DNA of 54,057 bases, taken from IMG/VR virus record IMGVR_UViG_3300048588_000062, one strand, 5' to 3'. The notes under the pieces were generated by a model. The model was not told where the DNA came from. It ran no database searches and saw only the letters and a list, made by a program, of their open reading frames with translations. The stretch is from a virus. The position numbers and the translations under genes were made by a program. Of this stretch, positions 22,649 to 42,580 are shown in pieces; within the stretch, counting starts at the first letter, position 1; every line of letters starts with the position of its first letter.

Positions 22649-22765
22649 GTAGTCAATGTAGTCAGTGTAGTCACCTCTTTTACCTTTGTAGAAAGGGGGA
22701 TAGATAAATAGAGTAGTAACTATAGGGGTCTTGAAAGGGGTGACTACAGGTGACTACATGACTAC
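22649..22765. promoter_or_regulatory. Regulatory module R1: 3x GTAGTCA, an AT-rich core, then 3x TGACTAC
   Basis: GTAGTCA is at 22649, 22658 and 22667 (9-bp phase). The core contains TTGAAA (22731-22736). TGACTAC is at 22741, 22751 and 22759. The module lies 140 nt upstream of ATG 22905. Confidence 0.7.
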
Positions 22766-22904
22766 ATATTGATCGGGGTCGATGGGTGGGTCCACATGCC
22801 CAGGCCCCCTGCGACACCGGGTGCTCCTGGGCGACACGGATGATCTTCACCCGTTGAACTGCTACAGTCCGTCGTAACGGCCTGTTAGCACACCTAGGAG
22901 ACAC

Positions 22905-23771
22905 ATGTCGGCGCAACGCAAGCCAGGGCTGTACCGCCAGCTCAGAGTCACAGGACGGCCTCTGACCCGCTCCTACAGCGACTACACGACAGAGGTGCTG
23001 GAGGCCGAACTCCAGGCGGCGATCAGCGAGGGGTTCGTCGACGCAATCCCGGAAGACCCCGGCGCGACCCAGCAGAGGCCCGCAGCGGCGCGAAAGATCG
23101 AACCCGAGCTTTCACCCCCGGCCGAGTTCTTCGGCCTTCCTGAGCCTGCTCCTGCCCCGGCACCGCAGCCTGTCGCGGCACAGGCCGACGTACCGCAGAC
23201 CCCGTGGGGGCCGGAGGACCAGCCCGCCCCTGCTCCCCGGCAGCAGCCCGCCACCGTTCCGGTGTCCTCGCAGCCCGATCCCGAGGAACTGCCCGGTCAA
23301 CGGCTCAACACCGCAGCCCCCGACGAGGTGATCCGCGTTGACGAGCTGGGCCGCAAGTGGCACCAGGAGGAAGTGCGTAAGCCCGCCTTCCCGAAACCCC
23401 GCGGCCGGCGCGTGCTGCAATACACCGAGACAGGTGTCGCCACTCAGACCGTGCAGAACGGTGAGTACGTGGAGACCTTCGAGGTCGCCGGCAACCAGCC
23501 GCAGCGTCCCGCCCAGGTGAAGATCACGTTGCCGTCCTACCAGGTCGGTATCTACACCGACCCGCGTTTCCCGTTCAAGATCCACTGCTATGACGGACGG
23601 GAAGGCTTCGACCTGCAGGATGTGCAGGCCTACTTCGGCGGGGCCGAGCTGGTGCCCGCCAGTGTCAAGCGCGTCTACATCGAGAACGCGCTGTGCTACG
23701 ACATCCGCTCTGTGATCCGCACGATCGAATCCGAATACCGCCAACTCCAACTGATGGGAAAGATCAAGTGA
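22905..23771 (+). CDS. Hypothetical Pro-rich protein (288 aa)
   Basis: SD (AGGAG) 5 nt upstream. GC3 checked by hand and is high throughout. Confidence 0.65.
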   Translation: MSAQRKPGLYRQLRVTGRPLTRSYSDYTTEVLEAELQAAISEGFVDAIPEDPGATQQRPAAARKIEPELSPPAEFFGLPEPAPAPAPQPVAAQADVPQTPWGPEDQPAPAPRQQPATVPVSSQPDPEELPGQRLNTAAPDEVIRVDELGRKWHQEEVRKPAFPKPRGRRVLQYTETGVATQTVQNGEYVETFEVAGNQPQRPAQVKITLPSYQVGIYTDPRFPFKIHCYDGREGFDLQDVQAYFGGAELVPASVKRVYIENALCYDIRSVIRTIESEYRQLQLMGKIK

Positions 23772-26328: not shown

Positions 26329-27789
26329 GTGCCGACCTTCCCGGTCTACTACAAGCCGAGGCCGTATCAACAGGAACTCCACAAGATGTGGAGAACCAAG
26401 CGGTACGGGATCGCGGTGCTGCCCCGGCAGACCGGGAAGGATGTCGCCGCGTCGATGGAGCAGTGTGACGCACGGCTCAAGACGGCGAAGACGACGGGGG
26501 TGTACATCTCGCTGTCCAACCCGATGATCCGCGACATCCTGTGGGACAAGACGTACATCGACCCGGTGACGGGGGACTATGTGCGTGGCCTGCACGACAA
26601 CGTGCCGGCGGAGGTGGTGGCCTGGAAGGACACCGTGATGGAGGGCCGGTTCACCAACCACAGCCGGCTGAAGTTGCAGGGCTACTTCCAGTCCGGCCAG
26701 GACAAGGCCGGTGTCGGCACCTCGTTCCAGGACTACACGATCACCGAGCTGGCGCTGTTCAGCCGGGAGGATCCGATTCCACGGCTCATGCCGATCCTCG
26801 AGAACCGCGCCGAACAGAAGCGGCTGATGGTGGTCAGCACTCCGCGTGGCAAACGGCGCAACCCGCTGTGGCAGTTGATGGAGTCGATGAAGACCAACCC
26901 GGAGGCACAGGTCATCATCCGCGACATTGACGATCTCAACAGGATCATGAAGCGCGAAGGCCTCCCGCCGGTCCTCACCGAGGACGAACTCGAACGGATC
27001 AGGGACACCTACCTGAAACGGTTCGGCAACGACCGGATGTTCGAGCAGGAATACTACGTCTCCTTCGAGGAGATGGACGCGGCGGCCGTGTACGGCGAGG
27101 CGTACATGCAGCTCGAACGGGACAACCGGGTTCACGACTTCAACCTCGACCCCGGCCACCCGGTGTACGTGGCCTTCGACATCGGCTCCTCGGGGATCCA
27201 GTCGGACGCCACCAGTTGGGTCGCGTTCCAGTGGATCAACGGGCGGCTGTTCCTGTACGACTGCGGAGAGGGTCACGGCATGGCGCTGCCGGAGTACGTG
27301 GACGTGCTGCAGACCAAGCACTACTTCAACAAGATCGCCGCGATCATCCTGCCGTGGGACGGCGACCACCACGAGAAGGCGATCAACACCACGCCGGCCG
27401 ACATGATGCGCCAGCGGTTCGGCAACGTCGCGGTGCTCGCCAAGTCCAACAAGGTGTGGAAGATCCCCGGTTCCCGGCAAGGGGACTTCTCGATCATCAC
27501 CGACATCCAGCAGACCCGCATGACGCTGTACAACACGATCGTCCACAAGACGAACTGCGAGTGGTTGCTGGAGTGCCTGGAGAACTACAAGTACGAGTTC
27601 AACACCCGGTTGCAGATGTGGTCCCAGCAGCCGTTGCACGACAAGTACAGCCACATGATGGACGCCTTGCGTTACGCGGTGCAGTCCGTGAAGGAACTGG
27701 ACTTCTTCAGCGGAAAGTTTTTCGACCATTCCGGGGAGACCCAGAAGTCGGTTAGTTACGAAGAGGACTGGACAGGGGTGTGGGCATGA
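26329..27789 (+). CDS. terL: Terminase large subunit
   Basis: GTG start with AGGAG upstream. The N-terminal ATPase has a Walker A-like LPRQTGKD. The C-terminal nuclease-like region includes VYVAFDIGSSG. Size is 486 aa. Confidence 0.8.
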   Translation: MPTFPVYYKPRPYQQELHKMWRTKRYGIAVLPRQTGKDVAASMEQCDARLKTAKTTGVYISLSNPMIRDILWDKTYIDPVTGDYVRGLHDNVPAEVVAWKDTVMEGRFTNHSRLKLQGYFQSGQDKAGVGTSFQDYTITELALFSREDPIPRLMPILENRAEQKRLMVVSTPRGKRRNPLWQLMESMKTNPEAQVIIRDIDDLNRIMKREGLPPVLTEDELERIRDTYLKRFGNDRMFEQEYYVSFEEMDAAAVYGEAYMQLERDNRVHDFNLDPGHPVYVAFDIGSSGIQSDATSWVAFQWINGRLFLYDCGEGHGMALPEYVDVLQTKHYFNKIAAIILPWDGDHHEKAINTTPADMMRQRFGNVAVLAKSNKVWKIPGSRQGDFSIITDIQQTRMTLYNTIVHKTNCEWLLECLENYKYEFNTRLQMWSQQPLHDKYSHMMDALRYAVQSVKELDFFSGKFFDHSGETQKSVSYEEDWTGVWA

Positions 27790-28503: not shown

Positions 28504-28816
28504 CGCCGCGTTCCTTCCACCACTTCTCCCGCCAGGCGTCCGCCTCCGGCCGGCCACACACATCACACCGGCAGCGGGGGTGACGGCCTGCGTGGTCGTA
28601 GGCGTCGGTGTCCGGTCGTGTCTCCGGCAGCACCCTGTCGATGTCGGCCAGGACTTGCAGCGGCAGGAACCACTCCTTGTTGTACATCACGGCACCGGGG
28701 ACGTCCGGCTTGCGCACCTTGTACTTGCGCTCCTCGGGGGGAATCGGGCGGTAACGGGTGTGGTTCGAGTACACCCGAGTGCCGTCCTTGAGGACGGTGA
28801 CCGGGTGGTGCGTCAC
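28472..28816 (-). CDS. Hypothetical protein (114 aa), last gene of the leftward block
   Basis: GTGA overlap start at 28816. Good GC3 except in the last ~30 nt, which overlap the convergent gene 28216..28503. Confidence 0.5.
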   Translation of the reverse strand: MTHHPVTVLKDGTRVYSNHTRYRPIPPEERKYKVRKPDVPGAVMYNKEWFLPLQVLADIDRVLPETRPDTDAYDHAGRHPRCRCDVCGRPEADAWREKWWKERGVRFVPPAPGR

Positions 28817-29373
28817 GGATTCAGCACACCCTCGGTGTACTCCGCCCACAACGTCAACGTCATGGGCCGGTGCCGGCGGATGTAGTAGCCGGGCCGGACA
28901 CGGTACGCCTTGTTCACCTTCTTGCCGCAGATGTAGGTCATGTACGGCTTGCCGAAGTAGAACTTCAGGATCTGGTTGATCTTGCGCAGGTCACTGCGCC
29001 ACGTCTGCTGGCCGGGCCACCGCTTGTCGATCTTGTGCTGCATGATGTCTGCGACACGGATACCGGTGGCCCACTCGTAGATCATGACGGCGGAGACACG
29101 GTGGCCGTGTTCGGGGGAGAGCTTGCGCAGGAACTTGCGCACCTCCCGCTCCCAGCTCACGAGGTGCGGGTTCTCCTTGACCAAGAACTTGTCCTTCGTC
29201 AAGGGCATCCTCGCCCTCATCTCATCAGGCAGGACCAACTGGTCGAGGCGGTCGGACGCCGCGGCGTCGGCTGCCGTTGACGGGAGCCGACGTCGATCTG
29301 CTTCGTCCTTATTGAACCTCCGTTTGAGACTTTCCTCCACCTCATCCAGATAGGTCGTGTCATCGCTGAACAT
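28813..29373 (-). CDS. Hypothetical basic protein (186 aa)
   Basis: Start ATG 29373 (MFSDDTTYLDEVEE...) has no obvious SD. GC3 checked by hand and is high. Confidence 0.5.
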   Translation of the reverse strand: MFSDDTTYLDEVEESLKRRFNKDEADRRRLPSTAADAAASDRLDQLVLPDEMRARMPLTKDKFLVKENPHLVSWEREVRKFLRKLSPEHGHRVSAVMIYEWATGIRVADIMQHKIDKRWPGQQTWRSDLRKINQILKFYFGKPYMTYICGKKVNKAYRVRPGYYIRRHRPMTLTLWAEYTEGVLNP

Positions 29374-29461
29374 GACGAAACTGTAGCACCCAAAAAAGAG
29401 AGGGATCGTGCGCACAGTTTCGTCACAGGCTCAGTAAAGAAGAGTCGAGCCTCGCACCCAC

Positions 29462-29482
29462 CACACCTGTTCAACAGGTGTG
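29462..29482. promoter_or_regulatory. 21-bp palindrome nested in an 8-bp outer inverted repeat
   Basis: CACACCTGTT-c-AACAGGTGTG, flanked by TCGAGCCT ... AGGCTCGA. It lies in the 137-nt gap between 29511..29825 and 28813..29373. Confidence 0.4.
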
Positions 29483-29510
29483 ACGGGTACAAGGCTCGAA
29501 TCCTCTGCGG

Positions 29511-29825
29511 CTACTTGCTGCACATGCAGCCCGTGGCCGCGGTCGTGTCCGGTTCGGGCGGCCGGACCTCGCCGGCCAGCGCCGAATACCCGGCCATGTC
29601 CACGAAGTTGTCCAGCTTGTACGGGCTCTCCGCGCAACGTGACACCTTCAGCAGGACCATCATGATCGGCACGTCATGGATGTCGAACTCGACACCCTTG
29701 TACGCCGACCACATGGCGGCCGTCCGAGCGAAGTCGTCGGACGGATCACCGTAGTCCTTGTTGCGGTCACCCGTGGTGAGCCGCACCGCTTCCACCAGGA
29801 TCTCCTGGCGCACCGGGCCGGTCAT
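29511..29825 (-). CDS. Conserved phage protein (104 aa; TGDRNKDYGDP family)
   Basis: ATGA overlap start at 29825. The motif TGDRNKDYGDP...F...AAMW...DV.IMMVLLKVSR recurs in phage replication or nucleotide-metabolism neighbourhoods, as I recall. Confidence 0.5.
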   Translation of the reverse strand: MTGPVRQEILVEAVRLTTGDRNKDYGDPSDDFARTAAMWSAYKGVEFDIHDVPIMMVLLKVSRCAESPYKLDNFVDMAGYSALAGEVRPPEPDTTAATGCMCSK

Positions 29826-30679
29826 GCCGTCGCCCCGTACTTCGTGATGTTGGTGACGAGCTTGTCGATCTCCTCGGGGTCCAGGCCCACCTCGTCGGCA
29901 CGGGTGCGCAGCAGCGTCTCCCATCCGATGATCTGGGCCGCGTACATCTGCGACCCGATGGCGAACAGAGTGTTGTTGCGCCGGCCATCCGGGATCGGCT
30001 TGTTGAGATCGGTGATGAGATTGTCGTGCATGAGTGCTACCTCCATGTCGTCTGCTGTCTGCAGATAGGCGATGATCCCCTCCACGGTTGTGGAGGGTGC
30101 GGCTGCTGCGGCGTGGAGCCGCTGCTTCAGGTGGTCGGGGAGTTCAGCGATCAGCTCCCCGTTCCACCTCTGTTGCGGGTAGTGGTACACACACCCGACT
30201 GCGCGAAAGTCCACGCCGGTCTCCAAGCCGATGCGGTCGGAGTACCCGGCGTACCCGGTGGCGTCGTCCCATTGATCGTCGCTGGTCGCGTAGAACAGGT
30301 GGAGTCCGTCACCACTCTTGCTGGTCTCTGCCAGTGTGCGTGGCAGCAGACCGAGCCTGCCGGCGTGCAACATGCCGCCGTTCTTCCCGTCGATGTCGAT
30401 GCACACCAGGCGCAACGACCTCATGACGAACGCGAAGTTCCAGCGTCCCGCCTCGAAACCGGCCAGCACAGGTGCTGCCCGGAACCCACCGGAACGGTAC
30501 TTCGGGATGAAGCCCGGTGACTTGTCGGTCGGCTTCAACCCCCAGCCTCGATCGGTCTTGCCGTTGTCCCAGGCTCGGACCAGGGCAGGCCCGGCCGGTC
30601 CCGAGAAACGATCGAACTCATTCGGCATCGGCGAGGAGTTCTGGTACTGCTCCATCGTTTTCCACCATTGCTGTGCCAT
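29822..30679 (-). CDS. AEP-type primase-polymerase (Prim-Pol)
   Basis: VCIDIDGKNGG (the DxD metal site) and SKSGDGLHLFY (sGxGxH) are hallmark AEP motifs. The start is uncertain (30679, 30655 or 30628). Confidence 0.75.
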   Translation of the reverse strand: MAQQWWKTMEQYQNSSPMPNEFDRFSGPAGPALVRAWDNGKTDRGWGLKPTDKSPGFIPKYRSGGFRAAPVLAGFEAGRWNFAFVMRSLRLVCIDIDGKNGGMLHAGRLGLLPRTLAETSKSGDGLHLFYATSDDQWDDATGYAGYSDRIGLETGVDFRAVGCVYHYPQQRWNGELIAELPDHLKQRLHAAAAAPSTTVEGIIAYLQTADDMEVALMHDNLITDLNKPIPDGRRNNTLFAIGSQMYAAQIIGWETLLRTRADEVGLDPEEIDKLVTNITKYGATA

Positions 30680-32039
30680 GTGCTACGTCATCTCCTTTCA
30701 GGGACTCGAGGAACGCAATCGCATCCGGCTTGAACCCCGTCAGGACTTTGACCTTGCGGGGCTTGTTGTTCACCCGTTTCGACTTGCGATCCACCAGGAC
30801 CACAGGCCGGAACAGCTCGAAGATGTCTGGCTCCGACCACGGATTCAGGTCACCTTCGTTGATCCGCCACGACTGGAACCGTGTAGCCACCTCGGAGAAG
30901 TTCAGACCGATCAGGCCGTCGGCTCCGAGAGGATCCTTGTCCTCGATGTGTGTGAGGAACTGGATGGCCAACGAGTTGGCGTGCATGTGTTCCAGCTGCA
31001 GTGACACCGATGTCGAGGTGGGCGCCAGCATCACCGCCTTGTGCTCCTTGCGCACGAAGTTGTCGATCATCAGAGCGAGCAGGGCGCCCACCATCCGATC
31101 GGACAACATGTGGTCCATGAACATGAGGTTGTCCTTGTAGACATTCGGGAACCAGAACCGGATGATCCTGGCCTGCAATGCCGTGGACTTGTCACTGGAC
31201 TTCGGCTCCTTGTTCAGACCTTCGATGAACAGGGCGTTGGTCTTGACCATCGTGGTCTGCGAGGAGTACAGCTTCCGGATGGACACCGGCTCCCCTGCGA
31301 TCAACGACTTCTCGTTGCCGGAGTCACGCAGGTACTCGGCCATCCCGTCGTAGATGATGTTGACGAGTTTGCCCTGCACCTCGGTCACCACAGGAGAGGC
31401 CTTGCTGATCTCCTGTCGTGTCACATGGGAACAGTTCTCCCATCCGAACAGACGCTGCACCATGCTCATCAGCACGGACTTGCCATTGCGTCCGTCACCC
31501 AGCAGCAGCACGTATTTCACTGCCGACCAGTCCGGTGCCAGGGCTGTGGCTAGGTGACGCAGCAACGCCACGGCCTCCTCCTCGGAACCCAGCCACTCGG
31601 TCAGTACCGACATCACCTCGGCCTTGTCGGCCTCGACGGAGTTGAGCATCACCGGCAGGCAGTTCGGAACGAACTCCCCGTTCGGCTCATGGAGCTGGCC
31701 GTTGCCGCGCAACTCCTTCAATCCGTCAGGTGTACGCACCAGCAAACCGGTTACATCCCCGGTGAACTGGCGTGCTGACTGGCACACCATGTAGTGGAAG
31801 TTCAGCTCTTCCATCGAGGATTGGAACAACGTGTCGAACTGTTGCAGAGCTCGACGTTGCACACCCTGTGGCGACAGTGGCAGCCAGATGGTGCGCAACG
31901 GATCGACGTTCACTTCCTCATAGCCGGTCTTGTAGTCGACAGGCAGGTACAGCACGTTGTCGTGCATCACGAGAGAGAAGGACTCAGCCAGCAGAACAGC
32001 TTCTTCGCTCATCTCCCTCTTGGTCTTGATTGTTGGCAT
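30618..32039 (-). CDS. D5/P4-family SF3 helicase (primase-associated)
   Basis: Walker A LLLGDGRNGKS with the typical downstream context. 473 aa. Adjacent to the Prim-Pol gene. Confidence 0.75.
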   Translation of the reverse strand: MPTIKTKREMSEEAVLLAESFSLVMHDNVLYLPVDYKTGYEEVNVDPLRTIWLPLSPQGVQRRALQQFDTLFQSSMEELNFHYMVCQSARQFTGDVTGLLVRTPDGLKELRGNGQLHEPNGEFVPNCLPVMLNSVEADKAEVMSVLTEWLGSEEEAVALLRHLATALAPDWSAVKYVLLLGDGRNGKSVLMSMVQRLFGWENCSHVTRQEISKASPVVTEVQGKLVNIIYDGMAEYLRDSGNEKSLIAGEPVSIRKLYSSQTTMVKTNALFIEGLNKEPKSSDKSTALQARIIRFWFPNVYKDNLMFMDHMLSDRMVGALLALMIDNFVRKEHKAVMLAPTSTSVSLQLEHMHANSLAIQFLTHIEDKDPLGADGLIGLNFSEVATRFQSWRINEGDLNPWSEPDIFELFRPVVLVDRKSKRVNNKPRKVKVLTGFKPDAIAFLESLKGDDVAHGTAMVENDGAVPELLADAE

Positions 32040-32059
32040 AGCTACCTCGTTCTTGACAG

Positions 32060-32096
32060 GCGGAGCCTGCCGCCACTAGGTGACGACAGGCTCCGC
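32060..32096 (-). terminator. Stem-loop (10-bp stem)
   Basis: GCGGAGCCTG (32060-32069) pairs with CAGGCTCCGC (32087-32096). It lies between the 36-aa ORF and the SF3 helicase start. Confidence 0.35.
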
Positions 32097-32102
32097 GATG
32101 GG

Positions 32103-32213
32103 TTATTGCAGCAGGGTGATCCGTCGTCGCACCTCGTTGAACTCACGAGGTGAGAGGTTCGGATCGAGCAACTTCTCGTACAGCTTGTTGAGCACATCTT
32201 CCTTAGATGTCAT
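32103..32213 (-). CDS. Micro-protein (36 aa, below the track cutoff)
   Basis: Very strong SD (AAGGAGGAAG) 3-4 nt upstream of ATG 32213. Sequence MTSKEDVLNKLYEKLLDPNLSPREFNEVRRRITLLQ. Stop is TAA. Confidence 0.55.
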   Translation of the reverse strand: MTSKEDVLNKLYEKLLDPNLSPREFNEVRRRITLLQ

Positions 32214-32263
32214 GAACTTCCTCCTTCTCGCCGGCGTGGTACCGGTCCCCAACCCCATGTCGA

Positions 32264-33457
32264 TCAGGAGGTGGGTGTCATGCGGAAGATGTGCTTCACC
32301 CGTGCGGCTGTTGCATTGCCACGCGGGAGGATTCGACCGATGAGTTGCCGGCGCAGCGCGTCGTCATCGGTGTCATCCAAGATCACCAGGGTGTCGCAGA
32401 CCTTGTCCATACCGTCGGTACCGGTGGCCAAGGTTGCGGTTCCGATCAGGACATGGTGTTGCCCAGCCCGGAACTCGTTGAGGATTCTGTCCTTCTCCTC
32501 TGGTGAGGTACTACCCGTGACCAGTGCGGCAGGCACACCGTCACGAACCAGCGCACGCTGTGCTGCCAGCGCGACTGTCGCATGGTTGGCGTACACCATG
32601 ACAGGAGCAGCACTGGGCTGGATCACAGCCAGCAGCTCCGCCATGACATGCGCGCGCAGATGGTCGTCCTCGTCGACCAGTCCCTGATAGCGCAGGGTGT
32701 GCCGCATCTCCATGATGCTGGCCACCACCTTGTGCCGGCGGCGGTTGTAGCACCACTGCCGCAACTCGTCCGGCACCTGCTCCTTGTACGGGATCTCGAT
32801 GATCGAGAACACCGCATCGTCAGGCAGGTAGTACACCTTGGGCAGTGAGGCCAGGAACTCCGCGGCGTTCGAGAACTTCTGGAACCCGGTGACGATCGGC
32901 TCCACCCCGAACGGATTCTGCTCGGTGGTGCAGTGGGTGTACACGAATTGCAGGTATCCACCCCGAGTGCCCATCGGATCCAGAATGTGCGACACGCAGT
33001 AACAGCGTTCCGCATCGTTGTAGTTCGGCGTGGCCGACGCCAGGATCAGCGGGGCCTGCAGATGCTGGGCCAACTTGTCCAGCTTGCGCCAGCCCTTGCC
33101 CCGCTGCCCACCGAACAGGTGGAACTCGTCGGCCACGATCGGCACAGTCCGCGACAACTTCGTCGTCTTCTGCCGGAACAACGCATGGGACAGCGGTGCG
33201 ACCCGGATGCCCAACGTCTCACCCAGTTCCAGCCAGTGCTGGTGAGTGGACGGAGGTGCGATCACTACGCACCGGTCGTAACCCAGTGCGGCGATCGCGG
33301 CCAGTGCGGTCAGGCTCTTACCCGCACCCGTCTTGTAGAACAGACAGGCACGCAACTGCTCCGGGTTGCCGGTGTCAAGGATGCTGTCCAGAAAGTTCTG
33401 CTGGTACGGGAACAGCGTCACACCTGCACGCCGTTCCACCTCGGCGATCGTGGTCAT
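32264..33457 (-). CDS. SF2 (DExH/SNF2-like) helicase
   Basis: Motif I FYKTGAGKS, motif II IVADEFH, motif III SATP and motif VI QLIGRILPRG. Confidence 0.8.
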   Translation of the reverse strand: MTTIAEVERRAGVTLFPYQQNFLDSILDTGNPEQLRACLFYKTGAGKSLTALAAIAALGYDRCVVIAPPSTHQHWLELGETLGIRVAPLSHALFRQKTTKLSRTVPIVADEFHLFGGQRGKGWRKLDKLAQHLQAPLILASATPNYNDAERCYCVSHILDPMGTRGGYLQFVYTHCTTEQNPFGVEPIVTGFQKFSNAAEFLASLPKVYYLPDDAVFSIIEIPYKEQVPDELRQWCYNRRRHKVVASIMEMRHTLRYQGLVDEDDHLRAHVMAELLAVIQPSAAPVMVYANHATVALAAQRALVRDGVPAALVTGSTSPEEKDRILNEFRAGQHHVLIGTATLATGTDGMDKVCDTLVILDDTDDDALRRQLIGRILPRGNATAARVKHIFRMTPTS

Positions 33458-33945
33458 GCGACCACCCAGCCCACACCGTCGAGCAGATCACGGATGAACT
33501 CGGCCAGCACCGTGTTGCCGGTGTCGTCCCGCATCATCCCGTAGATCCCGATGCGGGCAGCCGACCGGAGATCCTGGTGATGCGTGGCAGTGGGGAACTG
33601 GAACACCCCCAGCTCACGCATCAGGTCGACGGGCACCATCTGCTTGACCCCGGTGTTGCGGATCAGCATGGCGTTGGGCAGCGTCTTGATGAACGCCGCC
33701 TCACCCTTGACCATCCTCTCGTCGGAGTTCAGACGCAGACGAGGGACGTACTTCTCGATGAACACCTTGGGTCGGTGGCCCGGGTAGGTGGACTGCAACC
33801 AGGCCAGAACGTCGTCAGGGTCCATGCCGTCGGTGACATGGTGATCGACAGTCACGGTTCGTGACAGAGGATCGAACACCATCCCCACCGTGCCGGTGTG
33901 TACCAGACCTGGGTCCACTCCGACGATGTGTGAGAGAGTTAGCAC
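33454..33945 (-). CDS. RuvC-like Holliday junction resolvase
   Basis: GTG start with AAGGAGG upstream. Catalytic contexts are IVGVDPG, FIEKY and HHQDLRSAARIG. Confidence 0.7.
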   Translation of the reverse strand: MLTLSHIVGVDPGLVHTGTVGMVFDPLSRTVTVDHHVTDGMDPDDVLAWLQSTYPGHRPKVFIEKYVPRLRLNSDERMVKGEAAFIKTLPNAMLIRNTGVKQMVPVDLMRELGVFQFPTATHHQDLRSAARIGIYGMMRDDTGNTVLAEFIRDLLDGVGWVVA

Positions 33946-33967
33946 AGCTACCTCCTTTCGGTTGGGC

Positions 33968-34000
33968 GGGAGCGCCAGGCCTGTGCAACCTGGCGCTCCC
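33968..34000 (-). terminator. Stem-loop after the DNA polymerase gene (12-bp perfect stem)
   Basis: GGGAGCGCCAGG, a 9-nt loop, then CCTGGCGCTCCC. No U-tract. Confidence 0.4.
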
Positions 34001-34009
34001 GTTACAGCA

Positions 34010-36115
34010 TCACTTCGTGTAGCGGTAATCGCTCTTGATCTCCGCCGACAACGGAAACCCTTGCAGCACCGATGACGACATGAACCTGTCCATCATCTGC
34101 ATTGTTGTGTTCAACGGCACCGCGTGCGGGTCCGTGTCCGGTGACCAGTCCACCACGATCTCGTCGTGGAACTGGCCGACAACCTTGACGTTGGTCGTGC
34201 TTCGTGCCCAGTCCTGCACTCGGTACAGGCTGGCGAAGAACAACTCCCGGCACAACGACTGGGTCAGGATGCCGGACAGCTTGCCACCGTAGATCGTGTA
34301 GGCACGGCGCTGCTTGGTCTTCGGGTCGATGAACGAGTTGGCCCACAGGTCACCAGTCTTCAGCTCGCTCGGCTTGTAGTAACCGATGTTGCGGCCCTTG
34401 ATCTGCGCACCGTGGATCACACGGGTCAGCAGGTTCTGGCCGTCGAGCGTCAGCATCTCGAGTTGCAGGGATACGAGGTCGGGATCTCCGACCTGTTCCC
34501 GCAACGACTCAGGTGCGGTGAACGGGGTGAACACCACGACACAGTTGTCCTTGATCACCTCGGCCCCGAACCTCGGCGCACTCAGTGCATCGTGCAGCGC
34601 CTGGTCCAGCTGCTTCCAGTAGGTGACGACACCTTCGTTGGCGGCACGCCAGTCGATGACCAGCTTCGCCGCCTCCTGCACTGTCATCTCAACACCCATC
34701 TTCGCGGCGAACGAATGCACCGCATCGGCGCCGGCCCCGTACCCACAGGCCAACTCACCCACCTTGCCAATCTGGCGCTGAGGTTTGGTGACCTGTTCGT
34801 ACGGCACGCCGAAGATCTTGGATGCCTGCACCTTGTACAGGTCGTGGCCCTGGTGGTAGGCGTCGAGCTTCCACTGCTCTGCGGCCTGCCACGCCAGACC
34901 CCTGGACTCCACACTGCTGAAGTCCCCGACGACCAGCAGACCCTCAGGGTCCGTGGCCGTGAACACCTGCCGCAGGTTGGAGGCCAACTGGCCGTTGTCC
35001 CACTGCAGGTCAGGGTCTTCGAGCAGCAGCTCGACTTCATCCCCTTCACCGTTGAGCCGCTTCAGGTTCTGCATCTGCACACCACGCCCCGAGGTACGGA
35101 ACGTGGCACCAGCACCACAGTGCAGGTACTGGTCACGCAGCCGACCAGTGTGGTCGACCGTGTTCAGGATGGTGTCCAACTTCTTCAGGCTGGACCCACC
35201 CATGATCTGCTTCGTGTGCAACAGGTGCAGCACCTGCTCGTAGCCTTCACGCTTGACGCCCTCCAACGTGGTGCCGTTGGTCAGCTTGCGTTCGATCAAG
35301 GTGATCATCCGCTTCACCGCATCCTCGTCGAACGAGGATGCGTTGACCCCTCGCTGCTTGCACCACTGCTGCAGTTGAGGGAAGGACGCCAGGTTCAGGT
35401 CGTGCGAACCGGTGTCCGTGCGGAACTGTTCGATCGCCTTGTCCACGTTGTGCAGGTAGCGGCGTTGCATCTCCCGCACCAGCGGGGTGTCGACGTGCCA
35501 CCCGGTGCTGTTCATGTTCATGGTGACATGGGTGTACGCCAGTTCCCGTGACGTCGTGCGCGGCAGCAGCAACTCGGCCAGCCGGTAACTGAGTTCGGCG
35601 TCCACGTCGCAGTAGTAGATGAACTCCTGCCACTTGTCCGGGAACTCCTCGATGATCTCCGGCTGGAACTGCCCGGTGATCTTCTCCTGCTGGTACTTGC
35701 CAGGGATGGAGAACACCTTGATGAGGTGAACCCCTGACTCCACCTTGTTGATACCGAGCAGTTGAGGTGCTGCGGCTTCGAGCTTGCCGGCCGCGCCCGC
35801 GGCACGGGCCAGCACAGCGGTGTCGATGAACCGCTCCGCAGGGAAGTCGAGGCCCAGCTGTGCGAGCACAGCCTGCTCGAACCCTGCGTTGTGCGCCGCG
35901 ATCATCCACCCGGACAGGGCAGCGGCGAGCTTGTCCTGTGCATCCGGGTCGTTGATGAAATCGAAGCGGCGCTTCTGACCCGGCAGAGGTCCATGCACTG
36001 ATGCGATCAGTACCTGGAAGTCCGGGCAGTTCACGTACCTGCTCAACCCGTGGGTCCGCAGATCCGTCGAAGCATAGGTCTCAAAGTCCAGGCCTATGAA
36101 CTGGTTGTCGTGCAT
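34010..36115 (-). CDS. polA: Family A DNA polymerase with a 3'-5' exonuclease domain
   Basis: Exo I IGLDFETY, motif A DFSSVESRGLAW, motif B RQIGKVGELACGYGAG and motif C QFHDEIVV. Confidence 0.93.
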   Translation of the reverse strand: MHDNQFIGLDFETYASTDLRTHGLSRYVNCPDFQVLIASVHGPLPGQKRRFDFINDPDAQDKLAAALSGWMIAAHNAGFEQAVLAQLGLDFPAERFIDTAVLARAAGAAGKLEAAAPQLLGINKVESGVHLIKVFSIPGKYQQEKITGQFQPEIIEEFPDKWQEFIYYCDVDAELSYRLAELLLPRTTSRELAYTHVTMNMNSTGWHVDTPLVREMQRRYLHNVDKAIEQFRTDTGSHDLNLASFPQLQQWCKQRGVNASSFDEDAVKRMITLIERKLTNGTTLEGVKREGYEQVLHLLHTKQIMGGSSLKKLDTILNTVDHTGRLRDQYLHCGAGATFRTSGRGVQMQNLKRLNGEGDEVELLLEDPDLQWDNGQLASNLRQVFTATDPEGLLVVGDFSSVESRGLAWQAAEQWKLDAYHQGHDLYKVQASKIFGVPYEQVTKPQRQIGKVGELACGYGAGADAVHSFAAKMGVEMTVQEAAKLVIDWRAANEGVVTYWKQLDQALHDALSAPRFGAEVIKDNCVVVFTPFTAPESLREQVGDPDLVSLQLEMLTLDGQNLLTRVIHGAQIKGRNIGYYKPSELKTGDLWANSFIDPKTKQRRAYTIYGGKLSGILTQSLCRELFFASLYRVQDWARSTTNVKVVGQFHDEIVVDWSPDTDPHAVPLNTTMQMMDRFMSSSVLQGFPLSAEIKSDYRYTK

Positions 36116-36119
36116 GGTG

Positions 36120-36836
36120 CTAGTCCTCCTTCAGGATTTCCGCCTCGTCGAGGACAGGCGGATACAGAATCTGCATCATCGTCGGACACATGGGAGTTCC
36201 CTTGAGTCCTCGGCTGTGCGGATTGGCGGGACAGAACATGCACGAGTCACCAGGTGTGAACGTCGTGCTGCCCTGTTGGATCGCTGTCTCGGTGGCTTGT
36301 GCTTCACCCATGAACCGAGCCAGTGTTGCGGTGTCAGCGAACCAGGTGGCGGTGTTGTCCGCCCACGGTTGCACGATGTGCAGCCACGCCCCCTTCGCTT
36401 TGGGTGCGAAGTGGCCGTAGCTCACTGCGTAGTACATCAACTGCAGGTTGTTGACCACATCCACCGGGATGGTTCCCGTCTTCAGGTCGAAGATGTGGAG
36501 TTCGTCAGACAGGTACAGCACGAGGTCGGCTGTCGTGTGCGGCTTGGTGGCCAGCCATTCCACTGTCACCTCGTGTTCGATCAGCGTGGAGAATCGCCTC
36601 CGGCTGCGGATGTCCGCAACGTAGGAGAGGGCTTCCGAAAATTTCGCCGCTGATTTCGCGGGCAGCTCCATCACCTGTGCGAACAGGTCGTGCAGATGGG
36701 TGCCCCGGTTGGCAGCGTTGTCCTTGAGCGGGTCAACGACAGGTGGCTGCCAGCCTGGGATCGCCACGTCCAGTTGTGCGCTGGCGTGGCATTGCATGTG
36801 CCGTTCGGCCCGGCTTGCCGAGAACATCTCAGCCAT
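36120..36836 (-). CDS. Cas4-like PD-(D/E)xK exonuclease with 4-Cys cluster ligands (DUF2800-like)
   Basis: The N-terminal Cys (HMQCHAS) plus the C-terminal CMFC...C could ligate an Fe-S cluster. The nuclease core is ADLVL ... IFDLKTG. Confidence 0.7.
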   Translation of the reverse strand: MAEMFSASRAERHMQCHASAQLDVAIPGWQPPVVDPLKDNAANRGTHLHDLFAQVMELPAKSAAKFSEALSYVADIRSRRRFSTLIEHEVTVEWLATKPHTTADLVLYLSDELHIFDLKTGTIPVDVVNNLQLMYYAVSYGHFAPKAKGAWLHIVQPWADNTATWFADTATLARFMGEAQATETAIQQGSTTFTPGDSCMFCPANPHSRGLKGTPMCPTMMQILYPPVLDEAEILKED

Positions 36837-36916
36837 GTGCTTCTCCTTTCAGGGGAAGAGGCGGGCGCCCCGGAGAGGAAGCATCAGCTTCTTCTCCGAG
36901 GCACCCGCCATAGTGA

Positions 36917-37600
36917 TCAGTCGAGGAACATCTCGTCGGCGTCCATGTCGACGCCGCCGCCGAACCTCTCTGCATCAGCCTTGAACACAGCGGTGGTCAC
37001 GCCGGCCGAGAAGCCAGGCAGTTTGCCATTGTGATAGGCGTACAGATTGAGGGTCGCCACCACGATGCAGCCCGGGTACATCTCGAACTTCGTGTCGGAC
37101 AGCGGCAGGATGGTGCCCCGCTCCGGGATGATCAGATCCGGGTCCGGCACCAGCAGCTCGGACTCGTTGCGAACGATCGCCTTGAGTTCGATGTTGCCGC
37201 CCTTCGGTCCGATCGCCTTGATCGTGGCCACCGCTTCCGGTGCCAGTTCCGCGGACTTCTCGTGAACGGGCTTGGCCGGGCTGTTGTAGATCTGGTCGGC
37301 CAGATCACCACTGATCCCGTCGATCAACTGCTTGACCTCCTTGGGTTCGAGCGCATCGCGCTTCTCCCCCTTGGCGTGCTGCTCCTGGCAGTAGGGCAGG
37401 AAGTTATCCACGGCGTGGGTCAGGAACCGATCCCACTGACCCTGGGTGACCAGCATCAGGAAGTCGGGCGAGGCCGAGCCGATGTCCTTGGCCGGGTAGC
37501 TTCCCTTCTGGCTGCGCTCGTAGGCCTCGGCAGCGGTGAAGGTCGGGAACGACAGACGCCCGAAGACGGTGACGTTCTTGGGGTTGACTGGCTTACTCAC
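36917..37600 (-). CDS. ssDNA-binding protein, T7 gp2.5/DUF2815-like
   Basis: GTG 37600 with AAGGAGG upstream. It has an N-terminal VTVFGRLSFPTF and an acidic C-terminal tail ending DMDADEMFLD. It sits next to the Cas4-like nuclease and PolA, a known module. Confidence 0.6.
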   Translation of the reverse strand: MSKPVNPKNVTVFGRLSFPTFTAAEAYERSQKGSYPAKDIGSASPDFLMLVTQGQWDRFLTHAVDNFLPYCQEQHAKGEKRDALEPKEVKQLIDGISGDLADQIYNSPAKPVHEKSAELAPEAVATIKAIGPKGGNIELKAIVRNESELLVPDPDLIIPERGTILPLSDTKFEMYPGCIVVATLNLYAYHNGKLPGFSAGVTTAVFKADAERFGGGVDMDADEMFLD

Positions 37601-37658
37601 AGTTGTCCTCCTTGGACGGTTGATGGATGTGAGATGGTGCGTGTTACAGGTGGTGCGC

Positions 37659-37690
37659 TCATCGGCCACGGCGGATCCCGTGGCCGATGA
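37659..37690 (-). terminator. Stem-loop (12-bp stem)
   Basis: TCATCGGCCACG, loop gcggatcc, then CGTGGCCGATGA. It lies between the vWA stop and the SSB start. Confidence 0.4.
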
Positions 37691-37697
37691 GGTGGTG

Positions 37698-38627
37698 CTA
37701 GTAGGTGTAGGTCAACGAGGTCTGCGCCATGAGCAGCGGGCGTACCTCGTTGGCCAGCTGGCCCAGCACCTCACTGAGGTACGTGGGCCGATCCACCAGA
37801 CTGATGTCGAGCACCTGCTCGATGCTGCCGGTGCAATCACGCAACGCCGACTTGGCAGCCGGGCTGCTGTCGTAGTCGGCGATGCTCACGACAACGCCCC
37901 ACTCCGTGGAATCGAAGAGTGGTTTCAGCGTCTCGTAGTGTGTGCCGCCATACTCCGCGGCGTGCAGCACGGCCTGCTCGGAGAACTCACCCGGGTGCCA
38001 GTGCGTCGTGGTGTTACTGACGATGGCCAGGTGAGCGTCCGCCTCCCAGGACAGGGCGACAACGTCGCCGACCAGGGCACGGACTGTGTTCTCCGACATC
38101 GAACCCGACACGTCGAACACGATCAGGTTCGGCTTGGCCGGCGTGTGCTGGATGCGGGCCTTGTAGTCACCGATCGTGGCACGCTTCGCGTTCAGCGTGG
38201 CCAGCGTGGAGAACATCATCTGCCCGTGTTTACCGGGCAGTGTGCCCACCACGTTCTTCAACTTGTCGGCAACCTGTTGAATGGACGTGGCGATCTCCAC
38301 CTGCAACGACTGCCACAGTTCGGGAAGGATCTCCCCCTGCGGCCGGACGTCACGATCGAAGGCGATCAGACCGTCGAGCATCTCGGGCTGATAGCCCAGC
38401 TCCACGAGATAGTCCTGCAACTCGTGGCTGTGCGCACCACTGTCCTGGGTCAGTGCGTGCAGCACACTGTTCTCGCGGAACAGGGCGTACAGCAGGATGC
38501 CCAGTTCCTGTGCGTCGAACTTGAACAGCTTGGCGAAGAACAGTGCCGTCTCGATGTCGGGCAGCGTGCGCTTCAGGATCAGGCGAGGGAACACCAAGCC
38601 TGGTCGTATCGTGATGAGCTCATTCAT
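37698..38627 (-). CDS. von Willebrand factor A (vWA) domain protein
   Basis: MIDAS motif VFDVSGSMS, followed by the typical beta-alpha pattern. An 8-nt overlap couples it to the AAA+ gene. Confidence 0.75.
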   Translation of the reverse strand: MNELITIRPGLVFPRLILKRTLPDIETALFFAKLFKFDAQELGILLYALFRENSVLHALTQDSGAHSHELQDYLVELGYQPEMLDGLIAFDRDVRPQGEILPELWQSLQVEIATSIQQVADKLKNVVGTLPGKHGQMMFSTLATLNAKRATIGDYKARIQHTPAKPNLIVFDVSGSMSENTVRALVGDVVALSWEADAHLAIVSNTTTHWHPGEFSEQAVLHAAEYGGTHYETLKPLFDSTEWGVVVSIADYDSSPAAKSALRDCTGSIEQVLDISLVDRPTYLSEVLGQLANEVRPLLMAQTSLTYTY

Positions 38628-39552
38628 CTGGATCCTCCTCGGGATGGGTCATGGTTTCCTGCAGCTGGATGAGTTGCAGGTTCATCTTCAGGTTGAGCGC
38701 CTGAAGATGGTTGAGTTTCGGATTGCCGATCAGTCCTGTTGCCGCTGACTGATACCCGGCAGGGACGTTCTTGCCGTCGACCAGCAGCACGTACTGCGGC
38801 TTGGACTTGTGCATGGCCAGAGTGTTGTTGAGATCAATGACATCTCGCAGCATCCCTGGGTCCACCAACCGCATCTGCACCAGGCCGATCAGCTTGCGCA
38901 GACTCTGACCCTCGGGAGGATGAGGCTGCACTTTGACGCCCTTCTTGGTGAAGGCGTCGAGCACGGAGTACATCGGGAACACCTCAGTCTCGAGCAGTTC
39001 CAGAGTGTCCGGATGTGTCACCATCTCAGGCAGTAGGCCCAGTGATTCCACGAAGATCTTCAACAGCTTCTTCTGTTCGGCCTTCGACTTGCGAGGGTCG
39101 GGCACAGGCAGATGAATCAGCCTGTCCTCCAGTGCAGGGTCATAGGTGATGACACTGTTGGAGTTGCCCATGATGAACACCTTCGGCAGATGGAAGGCGC
39201 CAACCCTGCGAGAGGTGAAGATGTCCAACAGTGCGTTGTACACCTCGGGGAATCCCCGCAGGAACTCGTCCATCAACAGGATGTCGCCGTGTCTCAGGCT
39301 GGTCCAGAAGGTGGCCGGCAACATGCGAAGGACCATGTCCTCGCCGCTGCCGTGTGGCATCTGCACACCCTCGACCTCGAGAGGTGACAGCCGGCTGACG
39401 TTGAGGATGTGGAGATTCACGTCCAGCAAGTCGGCCAACTGTTCCGCACTGGTGGACTTACCACATCCAGGCGGGCCGACGACATGCGGCATAGGTGAGC
39501 GGACGTCGAACGCCATCGCCATCGTGTACAGTTTGAGCAGCTTCTCAAGCAT
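38620..39552 (-). CDS. MoxR-like AAA+ ATPase
   Basis: Walker A GPPGCGKST and Walker B ILLMDEF. 310 aa. SD AAGGAGAG. Confidence 0.8.
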   Translation of the reverse strand: MLEKLLKLYTMAMAFDVRSPMPHVVGPPGCGKSTSAEQLADLLDVNLHILNVSRLSPLEVEGVQMPHGSGEDMVLRMLPATFWTSLRHGDILLMDEFLRGFPEVYNALLDIFTSRRVGAFHLPKVFIMGNSNSVITYDPALEDRLIHLPVPDPRKSKAEQKKLLKIFVESLGLLPEMVTHPDTLELLETEVFPMYSVLDAFTKKGVKVQPHPPEGQSLRKLIGLVQMRLVDPGMLRDVIDLNNTLAMHKSKPQYVLLVDGKNVPAGYQSAATGLIGNPKLNHLQALNLKMNLQLIQLQETMTHPEEDPDE

Positions 39553-39576
39553 GACTCTCCTTGGGTGAGGTGAGAG

Positions 39577-39626
39577 GCAGCGACCCGAGACAGGTCATTG
39601 GTTGTGTCCCTGTCTCGGGTCGCTGC
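39577..39626 (-). promoter_or_regulatory. Conserved hairpin element E1 (18-bp perfect stem; loop contains GGTTGTGTCC)
   Basis: GCAGCGACCCGAGACAGG, a 14-nt loop, then CCTGTCTCGGGTCGCTGC. It is flanked by GGGTGAGGTGAGAG (39563-39576), immediately upstream of the AAA+ RBS. Confidence 0.55.
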
Positions 39627-39631
39627 ATGTC

Positions 39632-40021
39632 TCAGGACTTGATGGCGTCGAGCGTGGTCTCGTTGACCCAGATCAACATGCTGCCGTCCGTCTCTGCGAG
39701 CAGACGCAGCAGCACGCCGTCGTCATCGAGCGTGACACCCACGGTGGGTTCGCCCTCGGCACCCTCGTTGATGATGTAGGTACGCCAGTCGTTGCTGTCG
39801 TCCAGGTCCTCGGCGATCTCGTTGAGCACCTCGTTGAGCGGGGCCAGCATCTGTTCGATGACAGCGTCGACCTTCTCCGCCGCCTCCTGCTGACGCTTGG
39901 ACTGCTTGACCGCATCCCACACCGGAGACTTCAGGACCGTGCGGCCCTTGTCCCCGTTGATGTCGGTACCCGTGACGAGAACTCCACCGGACTGGAGTTC
40001 GGTTGTGGTGAATGATGGCAT
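39632..40021 (-). CDS. Hypothetical acidic protein (129 aa)
   Basis: ATG 40021 with AAGGAGG upstream; the longer track start at 40222 overlaps the upstream gene. Confidence 0.55.
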   Translation of the reverse strand: MPSFTTTELQSGGVLVTGTDINGDKGRTVLKSPVWDAVKQSKRQQEAAEKVDAVIEQMLAPLNEVLNEIAEDLDDSNDWRTYIINEGAEGEPTVGVTLDDDGVLLRLLAETDGSMLIWVNETTLDAIKS

Positions 40022-40040
40022 GTGATCCTCCTTGGATCGG

Positions 40041-40361
40041 TTAGGTGTACTGTCGCTGCGGTTTGATGAGGCCCCGCTGCCGGCCCTTGCGGTACAACTC
40101 AGCCAGCGACATCTCATGCCGGCTGTCGTTCTCCACCAGACGCACGTCGTCGTCGTCCGATGGACTTGTGGGGGTTCGCATCGAGTCCGCCAACTGTGCG
40201 AAGAGGTTGTCCTCGTAGTCACTGTGCAGTTGTTCGGGCGTCAACACCCGCGGCGGTTCCCTGTGCGAGGGATGCTTCGACATCGAGGCGGCCTGGCGAG
40301 CCAGGTCACTGAGTGTCAAAGCCTCGTGGAGTTGGCGGGGATGACGAGTGCTATCGGTCAT
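40041..40361 (-). CDS. Hypothetical protein (106 aa)
   Basis: ATG 40361 with GGAG upstream. Confidence 0.5.
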   Translation of the reverse strand: MTDSTRHPRQLHEALTLSDLARQAASMSKHPSHREPPRVLTPEQLHSDYEDNLFAQLADSMRTPTSPSDDDDVRLVENDSRHEMSLAELYRKGRQRGLIKPQRQYT

Positions 40362-40368
40362 CGTAGCC

Positions 40369-41175: not shown

Positions 41176-41458
41176 CGGTCTGTTCCGTCTGTGCAGCCGA
41201 GGCCATGTCCGCCAGCTTCTCCTCGATCTCGAGGATCTGGGCGTCCAGCTTGGCCATCCGCTCGTTGTGCGCATCGTTGGCCGCGGCCATCCGAGTGGCG
41301 TGAGCGGAGTCCAGCTCCACCTGCTTGGCCTGCAGGTTGGTCAGCTTCTCACTGAGGGCGAGACGCTGCGCCTCCTGCTTCGCCGCGGCCTTGGCCTCGG
41401 CCTCGGCCAGTTGCGCCTTGAGCTTGGCGATGTACTCCATGTTGGTTGCGCGTGCCAT
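41132..41458 (-). CDS. Coiled-coil protein (108 aa)
   Basis: SD GAAAGGAAGG. The sequence is Ala/Lys/Glu-rich with heptad character. Confidence 0.55.
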   Translation of the reverse strand: MARATNMEYIAKLKAQLAEAEAKAAAKQEAQRLALSEKLTNLQAKQVELDSAHATRMAAANDAHNERMAKLDAQILEIEEKLADMASAAQTEQTDDSTDYAVADLDTV

Positions 41459-41500
41459 GCGGCACCTTCCTTTCTTGGATCCACCGGGTGAGGTGGGAGA

Positions 41501-41546
41501 GGCAGGCCAGGGTGGACACGGTTGTGTCCGGCTGCCCTGGCCTGCC
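41501..41546 (-). promoter_or_regulatory. Conserved hairpin element E2 (12-bp outer stem and 6-bp inner stem; contains GGTTGTGTCC)
   Basis: GGCAGGCCAGGG ... CCCTGGCCTGCC encloses GGACAC-ggtt-GTGTCC. It is flanked by GGGTGAGGTGGGAGA (41486-41500). Confidence 0.55.
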
Positions 41547-41585
41547 GACCGAGATGCAGGTGCATCCCGGCTACCTCGCTCATCA

Positions 41586-41694
41586 GGGCTGATTCAGCGA
41601 GGGTGTCAATGGGTCATGTCCCTGCATCGAGGGGCTGATTCAGCGAGGGTGTCAATGGGTCATGTCCCTGCATCGAGGGGCTGATTCAGCGAGG
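41586..41694. repeat. 46-bp tandem direct repeat, 2.4 copies, each with a CTGATTCAG palindrome
   Basis: Units 41586-41631 and 41632-41677 are identical, and 41678-41694 is a partial copy. The palindromes are at 41589, 41635 and 41681. Confidence 0.9.
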
Positions 41695-42562: not shown

Positions 42563-42580
42563 TGCTTCTCCTTGAGTCAA

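Follow-up and report, generated by a model that had tools for sequence, protein, structure and literature searches.

Two inverted heptamer modules in a podophage genome

We analysed IMG/VR record IMGVR_UViG_3300048588_000062, a stretch of 54,057 nucleotides (hereafter the window) in which short GTAGTCA repeats form two modules of opposed arrays around an AT-rich core, R1 (22649-22765) and R2 (43214-43411), each placed upstream of an operon (Table 1). Judged by its gene content and order, the window is a circularly permuted, near-complete podophage genome of ~54 kb, kin to the Microbacterium cluster EK/Burro phages. A nucleotide search of positions 21500-24500 against the phage collection gave zero matches, as did an exact search of IMG/VR for the right-arm 26-mer, so relatives were reached through proteins. 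Its large terminase shares 73% identity with the terminase of Arthrobacter phage MissAmericana and 61-70% with those of the Burro/cluster EK Microbacterium phages; for the DNA polymerase the figures are 47% and 38-45%, respectively. A giant gene runs off the end of the window and resumes at base 1, which, together with a gene order shared with MissAmericana, Burro and the cluster EK phages, marks the window as a circular permutation. These relatives are described as lytic, circularly permuted, headful-packaged podoviruses (PMC7302621).

Table 1. Position of the array modules, their flanking elements and the surrounding genes in the window
Feature	Position	Strand	Remarks
Giant gene	44568-54057 + 1-5181	+	open across the window ends
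Structural genes	after the giant gene, before R1
Outer inverted repeat, left copy	22583-22598	+	GTCGCAGGGGCCTGGG; one of a 16-17-nt pair bracketing R1
R1 left arm	22649..22673	+	three direct GTAGTCA (22649, 22658, 22667), 9/9 spacing
R1 core	22674..22740	.	AT-rich, 67 bp, 40% GC
R1 right arm	22741..22765	-	three inverted units, TGACTAC on the plus strand (22741, 22751, 22759), 10/8 spacing
Outer inverted repeat, right copy	22799-22815	-	CCCAGGCCCCCTGCGAC; brackets R1
Extended -10 promoter-like element	22860..22868	+	TGCTACAGT; 45 nt before ATG 22905, 95 nt after the last heptamer
Block after R1	from ATG 22905	+	large terminase at its end (26329..27789)
Leftward replication block	28813..43136	-	Prim-Pol, DUF5906 SF3 helicase, DEAD helicase, PolA, DUF2800 nuclease, SSB, AAA ATPase
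Prim-Pol primase	29822..30679	-	beside the helicase; domain match
SF3 (DUF5906) helicase	30618..32039	-	proposed iteron-binding initiator; domain match, profile, model
Divergent non-coding region	after the leftward block, 1.4 kb	.	holds R2
R2 arm nearest the leftward operon	43214..43238	+	three GTAGTCA (43214, 43222, 43232), 8/10 spacing; equivalent of the R1 right arm
R2 core	43239..43308	.	AT-rich, 70 bp, 37% GC
R2 distal arm	43309..43332	-	two perfect units (43309, 43318) and near-perfect GTAGTCC at 43326-43332
R2 spacer hairpin	43337..43355	.	GTCCCTCTGACCAGGGGAT; counterpart of the conserved GGTCAGAGG / CCTCTGACC spacer motif between sub-arrays of relatives
Extra R2 sub-array	43361..43411	.	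one plus-strand unit (43361) opposite three minus-strand units (43386, 43396, 43405); matches sub-site A of the three-part element of relatives

Counting both strands, the window holds 20 copies of GTAGTCA, against 3.41 +/- 1.93 expected and a maximum of 9 in 100 dinucleotide-preserving shuffles. Fifteen of the 20 sit in R1 and R2, where 15 perfect units and one near-perfect unit are packed within 117 and 198 bp, and the remaining five are single, scattered copies inside genes. This bears out the clustered excess reported in the initial annotation of the window, which had been made from the sequence alone. R2 is the reverse complement of R1, and the two modules align over ~120 bp. Their identity reaches 52/57 in the half nearest the downstream gene and is far lower in the rest of the core. 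The initial annotation had placed both inverted modules correctly; its identity figure for the best-conserved part (51/56) needs this small correction, and it had under-described the sub-array of R2 at 43361-43411. It had also argued that both operons see the same element in the same polarity. The start codons (22905 on the plus strand, 43136 on the minus strand) and the module orientations are as it gave them, but neither the GGGGTCTTGAAA box nor the fixed polarity extends beyond this genome: modules in relatives are dyad-symmetric and have cores that are alike only in AT-richness. The polarity argument thus rests on a half-module similarity that belongs to this genome.

The flanks of the modules also carry repeats. 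A copy related to the outer inverted repeat of R1 lies outside R2 at 43453-43470, and a CGACAC-type motif flanks modules in relatives too. Within R1, the inter-unit spacers of the two arms are not complementary (9/9 versus 10/8), which points to selection on the units rather than on hairpin pairing. Two open reading frames that overlap the modules, 22680..22916(-) and 43123..43311(+), were said to share a peptide only through the DNA repeat, and we agree: both exist, they lack coding-like GC content at third codon positions (GC3), and neither is in the GC3-filtered gene list. The peptide that they share therefore stems from the DNA repeat itself.

Arrays are conserved in position and differ in unit between phages

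To follow the modules across relatives, we collected 80 IMG/VR loci through the terminase (71-88% identity), many of them too short to reach the R1 position, and gathered loci for the R2 position through a conserved neighbouring element or the AAA ATPase. Arrays occur at the R2 position, that is in the divergent non-coding region, in every relative examined except one contig (L106, IMGVR_UViG_3300028603_000076). The initial annotation had made conservation of the heptamers in related genomes a test of its proposal; position and architecture are kept in all but L106, and the exact GTAGTCA recurs in many relatives. In L106, only ~250 bp separate a conserved structured element (described below) from the first gene, and a small GTGATAT / TTGAT-ATCAA repeat lies there instead of heptamer arrays.

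All five cultured relatives carry arrays at the R2 position, in alternating orientation around an AT-rich core and within a conserved, unannotated gap of ~900 bp. The unit is GGTAAC in Burro and Arete, GTAACC in Akoni, GAACCG in Alex44 and GTAACGA in MissAmericana, and nearly all genomic copies of each phage's repeat fall in its one R2 cluster. Arete, Akoni and Alex44 share one host strain (M. foliorum) and have three different repeats, so their binder has to be encoded by the phage. At the R1 position, at least 30 of the 80 IMG/VR loci carry a module 3-4.6 kb upstream of the terminase, with GTAGTCA, GTAGACA, CTAGTCA, GCAGTCA, GTGACAC or GGTCACC as the unit. Including its flank, the unit spans ~9 bp and is (G)TAG(T/A)CACC-like or (G)TAGTCACC-like.

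In all five genomes where both modules are seen, the two share the same repeat. These are the window, 3300037193_001441 (L041 / L094) and 3300045120_000224 (L083 / L095), all with GTAGTCA, as well as 3300030744_000163 with GTAGACA (L061 / L101) and 3300012346_000327 with CTAGTCA (L048 / L089). A repeat that varies between phages yet matches within a genome implies that one phage-encoded protein reads both modules, and the earlier view of the arrays as the recognition element of a single factor is thereby upheld. The two closest relatives found, whose helicases are 72% and 67% identical to that of the window, both have GTAGTCA at R1. In two loci (L065 at 1230-1650, and the R2 region of L093), GTAGTCA and GTAGACA are mixed within one array; T and A are probably both acceptable to the binder at position 5 of the unit, so GTAGTCA and GTAGACA may represent one specificity rather than two.

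Most relatives carry the element as a dyad of ~250 bp that divides into three sub-sites: two to three direct units and one inverted unit, the spacer GGTCAGAGG, two direct units, the core and two to three inverted units, the mirrored spacer, and finally one to two direct and one to three inverted units. Modules of relatives hold up to about 14 units. R2 of the window has the extended form, and R1 of the window and of L110 has a minimal 3+3 form. A perfect hairpin, TTCCCATGTCTCGCATGGGAA, stands in one to six copies between the sub-arrays of Burro, Arete, Akoni, Alex44 and a GTAACGA-type contig (L003-L006, L097). It is kept across phages with different units and may be the site of a second, conserved factor; the clade of the window has GGTCAGAGG and its mirror instead. 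The cultured relatives have a module at R2 only and none at the R1 position, and in MissAmericana the gap at the R1-equivalent position is 66 bp long and free of arrays. We take R2, present in nearly all members of the family, as the ancestral site and R1 as a second copy in one large metagenomic clade.

These comparisons bear on the idea that the modules act through nucleic-acid structure, as a cruciform or as a long RNA hairpin that would act as a terminator or an RNase III site, or that they are a small mobile element with terminal inverted repeats. The arms are indeed complementary (perfect or near-perfect inverted repeats of 11-15 nt), relatives have a palindrome of ~250 bp, and R1 is bracketed by inverted repeats. 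However, pairing would need neither identical units within an arm nor the non-complementary spacers that we found, every unit in both modules changes in concert from one genome to another, synteny of the positions holds even between very divergent genomes, and no recombinase or transposase was found. We regard both versions as highly improbable. Sites for an invertible segment or for resolution were also considered and rejected, with gene order constant in all relatives and no recombinase found, as was repeat binding at the RNA level, with units on both strands.

The cores are among the least stable stretches of the genome

We scanned the 54-kb genome for nearest-neighbour duplex stability in 40/60-bp windows. 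The R2 and R1 cores fall within the second and third least stable windows (z = 5.3 and 4.9, respectively). Across 34 distinct modules, the cores have a mean GC of 0.43, compared with ~0.63 for the window, and no shared sequence. Core lengths fall into three groups (44-49, 52-56 and 67-70 bp) separated by about one helical turn, a pattern suggesting that the two arms are held in helical phase.

The least stable stretch of the genome lies elsewhere, at 44225-44290, where an AT-rich palindrome, ATACATATACATATATTCATATATACATATATGTAT, is followed by GGGGGTATAGGG. The palindrome ATACATATACATATATTCATATATACATATATGTAT is kept in all cultured relatives, just upstream of the giant gene, and this region could be a late promoter region or the true origin.

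An SF3 helicase is the candidate binder of the arrays

Domain scans of the window detected one initiator-like protein, the SF3 (DUF5906) helicase, and no other. Its profile matches PriRep5 of the Staphylococcus aureus pathogenicity island (SaPI) SaPI5 (PDB 7OLA; E=4.5e-11), with weak co-linear similarity across the C-terminal domains. The AlphaFold model of the helicase has a predicted local distance difference test (pLDDT) score of 89.6 and a predicted template modelling (pTM) score of 0.86, and Foldseek again places 7OLA as its best PDB match (E=5.6e-17, template modelling score ~0.6, 424 columns of a 445-residue chain), followed by the primase-helicases of poxviruses (D5) and African swine fever virus. 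At the modelled C-terminus, helices at 381-394 and 403-410 lead into a long basic beta-hairpin at 414-436 (RKSKRVNNKPRKVKV). From the fold match, we infer a C-terminal domain of the winged-helix type. The DUF5906 assignment, the 7OLA matches and the model thus describe an SF3 helicase with a C-terminal winged-helix-type domain, as found at SaPI/P4-type origins. The arrays do the same for the DNA side, with 3+3 opposed units around easily melted cores of 67 and 70 bp in the window and this layout in the 34 modules.

The helicase has 672 homologues at E<=1e-10. It is near-universal in the family (42 of the 80 loci and the five cultured phages), as are the arrays. In an alignment of 22 helicases, groups defined by the C-terminal domain (wing and helix residues) track the repeat families; these groups are clades, so the match is confounded by phylogeny. 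Closely related genomes with CTAGTCA and GGTCACC differ by an indel at the tip of the helicase hairpin, that is the wing. We treat the association between C-terminal domain and repeat type as suggestive only.

The initial annotation had named another candidate, the Zn-finger protein encoded at 42807..43136 beside R2. This protein has no homologue in ~100 related loci, GTAGTCA R2 loci included, and a sequence search of the PDB gave no relative. The genes that come first after R2 vary between genomes, with ribbon-helix-helix proteins in two (L095, L098) and zinc-ribbon or membrane proteins in others, so small DNA-binding proteins beside R2 are not conserved. By Pfam, no ribbon-helix-helix or helix-turn-helix domain was found in the scanned proteins of the window, a scan that left out a few small open reading frames. 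Three further routes to a binder were tried and abandoned. A screen for a drop in identity, covering 16 window proteins over 35 loci sorted by heptamer class, singled out no protein; synteny pointed to no regulator beside R2, where neighbouring genes differ between genomes; and the AAA ATPase (38620..39552), considered as an Orc/Cdc6-like initiator, gave only generic AAA+ matches such as midasin and RuvB.

A conserved promoter-like element lies outside R1

A -10 element (TGnTAnnnT or TAnnnT) stands 42-49 nt before the first gene of the R1 operon. Of 30 distinct loci, 13 have the strict pattern, starting 44-49 nt before the gene (background probability 0.0045), and a TAnnnT hexamer takes the equivalent place in most of the others. 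This conserved element beyond the module indicates that, as far as promoter motifs tell, the R1 operon has its own host-type promoter, outside the module. The distance from the arrays to the -10 is 95 nt in the window, ~75-150 nt in most relatives and zero in L023; for the operon starting at 43136, the promoter was not identified. The sole sigma-70-like match per region, TAGTCA-N16-TATA(C/G)T, lies in the conserved half of the module and points into the core, away from the adjacent operon. A promoter inside the module was dismissed as a family feature, with inward promoter-like sites in 6 of 34 modules and 4.5 expected from shuffled cores.

These observations weigh on a transcriptional role, which is the main rival to an origin. 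In that case, a transcription factor encoded by the phage and distinct from the helicase would use the arrays as operators or upstream activating sites, binding cooperatively along one DNA face and switching the leftward replication and rightward packaging operons, in the manner of the omega heptads or the p4 sites of phi29. Both modules stand just upstream of operons, with the conserved -10 downstream of the arrays or, in L023, within them. The units are spaced 8-10 bp apart, or about one helical turn, and the heptamer resembles a -35 hexamer. Ribbon-helix-helix genes adjoin R2 in L095 and L098, and C2H2 or other zinc-finger genes lie near it in others. Yet the arrays have no regulator conserved alongside them, conserved promoters are absent from the AT-rich core, the arrays are mostly centred ~100 nt or more upstream of the -10, and at R1 there is no divergent gene on which a dyad-symmetric three-part element could act. 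The omega protein of pSM19035, a ribbon-helix-helix regulator, binds cooperatively to arrays of 7-bp units, direct and inverted, upstream of several promoters. Its heptads are contiguous (7-bp period) and sit directly at promoters, whereas the units here have an 8-10 bp period and arms that flank a promoter-less AT-rich core of 44-70 bp, and no ribbon-helix-helix gene was recognised in the window. Overall, we consider an operator for another regulator possible but rather unlikely.

The initial annotation had offered, as a second option, that the modules are the promoter class of a phage-borne RNA polymerase. The giant virion protein, which exceeds 4,400 aa in relatives and has no known function there (PMC7302621), may hide a polymerase; the relatives' proteins are reported to lack the virion RNA polymerase motifs of N4 (PMC7302621). 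Searches with Pfam and PHROGs found no RNA polymerase domain in any large protein scanned, although a very remote homologue within the giant protein could escape them. There are only two sites per genome rather than many, each is internally repetitive and dyad-symmetric, and the R1 operon has its own conserved host-type -10. We give this option almost no weight, and the initial annotation was probably wrong about both the identity of the binder and the special promoter class.

A further possibility is that the modules are terminase recognition (pac) sites for headful packaging, given that R1 heads the operon with the large terminase at its end. In phage P1, hexamer arrays flank the cleavage region of pac, and the layout of arrays around a core resembles it. 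Headful packaging is also what the relatives are reported to use (PMC7302621). But the cultured relatives have no R1 module, and their sole module lies by the replication operon, far from the terminase, so arrays do not accompany the terminase genes in every family member as a P1-type pac would. Moreover, domain scans of the Pfam/PHROGs type recognised no small terminase in the window, and two inverted pac sites would package in opposite directions. A packaging role is very unlikely.

Neighbouring elements

Between the small leftward gene and the R2 arrays lies a structured element (43616-43695, minus strand) that is also present in L092-L107, L001 and L003-L006, and so in L106, which has no arrays. 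Its 26-nt core, GACGCTTGCGCTCAGGCTACTGAGCG, with three degenerate positions, occurs in 16 IMG/VR contigs and is recognisable in all cultured relatives, and no protein-coding DNA comes close to the element in conservation. In three sequences the inner hairpin has G-C in place of A-U, a compensatory change, and the outer stem, CGTCTAGT...ACTAGACG, co-varies by eye. The element has no Rfam match, and it may act as a small RNA, as a structured leader or as a hairpin to which a protein binds.

Four tandem 9-bp units (GCAGATAGA / GCAGGAAGA) at 44120-44155, within the interval 44113-44180, are flanked by TTGACA (44113-44118) on one side and by TGGTATAGT (44172-44180), which resembles an extended -10, on the other, and they lie upstream of both the small leftward gene 43800..44093 and the giant gene. 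They may form a second, unrelated operator array. The stability scan also brought out a tandem repeat of ~14 bp, CTTCTTAGCTTCAG, with ~2.5 copies at 42602-42640, between genes 42239..42580 and 42807..43136.

The giant gene totals ~14.7 kb, compared with 13.3-13.5 kb in relatives, and its frames do not join across the window ends, which implies that a few bases are missing or duplicated at the permutation junction. ARAGORN predicts one tRNA-Asn (GTT) at 26888-26976 on the minus strand, antisense inside the large terminase gene. As relatives are reported to lack tRNAs (PMC7302621), this doubtful call is probably a false positive. An Rfam scan of the window at gathering thresholds returned nothing.

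Comparison with known iteron systems

In SaPI origins, 6-12 short iterons are divided equally between the two flanks of a central AT-rich region, with at least two per flank pointing in opposite directions (PMC9371898). The SaPI Rep is a self-loading initiator helicase whose winged-helix C-terminal domain binds the iterons, and iterons and Rep are element-specific (PMC9371898). The window shares the opposed short iterons around an AT-rich centre and has a helicase whose best structural match is SaPI5 PriRep5. It differs from SaPIs in its longer units (7-9 bp versus 5-6) and in the placement of the modules, two per genome and 8-11 kb from the helicase gene, whereas the SaPI origin is immediately downstream of rep. 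In relatives, moreover, the element is a dyad of three parts, to which additional inverted-repeat sub-sites and a conserved spacer motif belong. Finally, SaPIs are satellites, whereas this is a lytic phage in which binding by the helicase is a prediction.

The alpha protein of satellite P4 likewise has a winged helix C-terminal to its SF3 helicase domain (PMC2777425). In P4, a DnaG-type primase is fused to the helicase, while the window has a separate, adjacent Prim-Pol gene. The octamer iterons bound by P4 alpha, TGTTCACC, are distributed over ori and crr, two cis elements separated by several kb, which provides a precedent for two iteron modules in one replicon. The P4 crr is made of direct 120-bp repeats, though, and the P4 iterons have no sequence similarity to the heptamers described here.

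Two more distant systems are instructive. In simian virus 40 (SV40), the SF3 large T antigen binds GAGGC repeats that form inverted sets in several sub-sites; these adjoin an AT-rich tract between the divergent early and late genes, and binding also regulates transcription. This is a eukaryotic virus with pentamer repeats, and the origin-binding domain of T antigen is N-terminal to the helicase and of another fold. Lambdoid origins pair type-specific iterons by an AT-rich region with an initiator (O protein), and these specificities diverge among related phages; the lambda iterons differ in being 18-19 bp long and inside the O gene, and the initiator is not a helicase. The elements R1 and R2 are iteron modules of a known sort, not previously described for this phage group, in which two copies per genome and type-specific units stand out.

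The modules as candidate replication origins

Modules with SaPI anatomy, in a phage with a SaPI-like helicase, are best explained, in our tentative judgement, as iteron-type replication origins, or origin-like loading sites, read by the SF3 helicase. Repeats that are type-specific and the same in both modules are as expected of matched initiator-iteron pairs. In such a mechanism, the units would be binding sites for the winged-helix-like C-terminal domain of a self-loading helicase. The helicase would team up with the adjacent Prim-Pol primase, and assemblies loaded on both opposed arms would jointly open the low-stability core, where replication would begin. As the modules lie 75-150 nt upstream of host-type promoters where these are identified, their occupancy would probably also affect transcription of the adjacent operons. 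T antigen at the SV40 origin likewise influences transcription of adjacent genes, and by this analogy origin and operator roles are not mutually exclusive.

Several points weigh against the origin reading. Helicase binding and initiation at the modules are both inferred, and we hold them provisionally, with the balance close to even. The match between C-terminal domain and repeat type follows phylogeny, GTAGTCA and GTAGACA helicases show no consistent difference, and some modules mix the two units. The modules lack the adjacency to the initiator gene seen in SaPIs (the helicase gene spans 30618..32039, while R1 ends at 22765 and R2 starts at 43214), and ribbon-helix-helix genes sit directly beside R2 in two relatives. 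The AT palindrome at 44228-44290 is even less stable than the cores (z = 6.6) and conserved, and could itself be the true origin. A simple origin does not need two modules per genome, and cultured relatives have one. Both modules are upstream of promoters, and in L023 the arrays reach the -10 position, which fits transcription control.

A broader picture can be drawn from the origin reading, speculative and in our view unlikely. Heptamer type and helicase DNA-binding domain would define replicon specificity groups in strictly lytic phages, each replicating only from its own iteron type. The two inverted modules, which bracket a 20.5-kb segment of all replication and packaging genes, would act together, perhaps as paired origins or as an origin plus an enhancer that also switches the adjacent promoters, and the diversification of repeats among phages of one host would reflect competition of co-infecting phages for the replication machinery.

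For the cluster EK/Burro group, no origin or regulatory repeat has been described, and the main genomic survey lists repeats for other clusters and none for this one (PMC7302621). For its phages and a large uncultured clade around them, the arrays provide a testable candidate origin, a candidate initiator and, in the unit type, a sequence marker that varies among phages of the same host. If the helicase is indeed the binder, a self-loading SF3 initiator paired with iterons that flank an AT-rich core, as in the SaPI and P4 satellites, would occur in autonomous lytic actinobacteriophages as well, and these phages would offer natural specificity variants for the study of how SF3 helicases read DNA.

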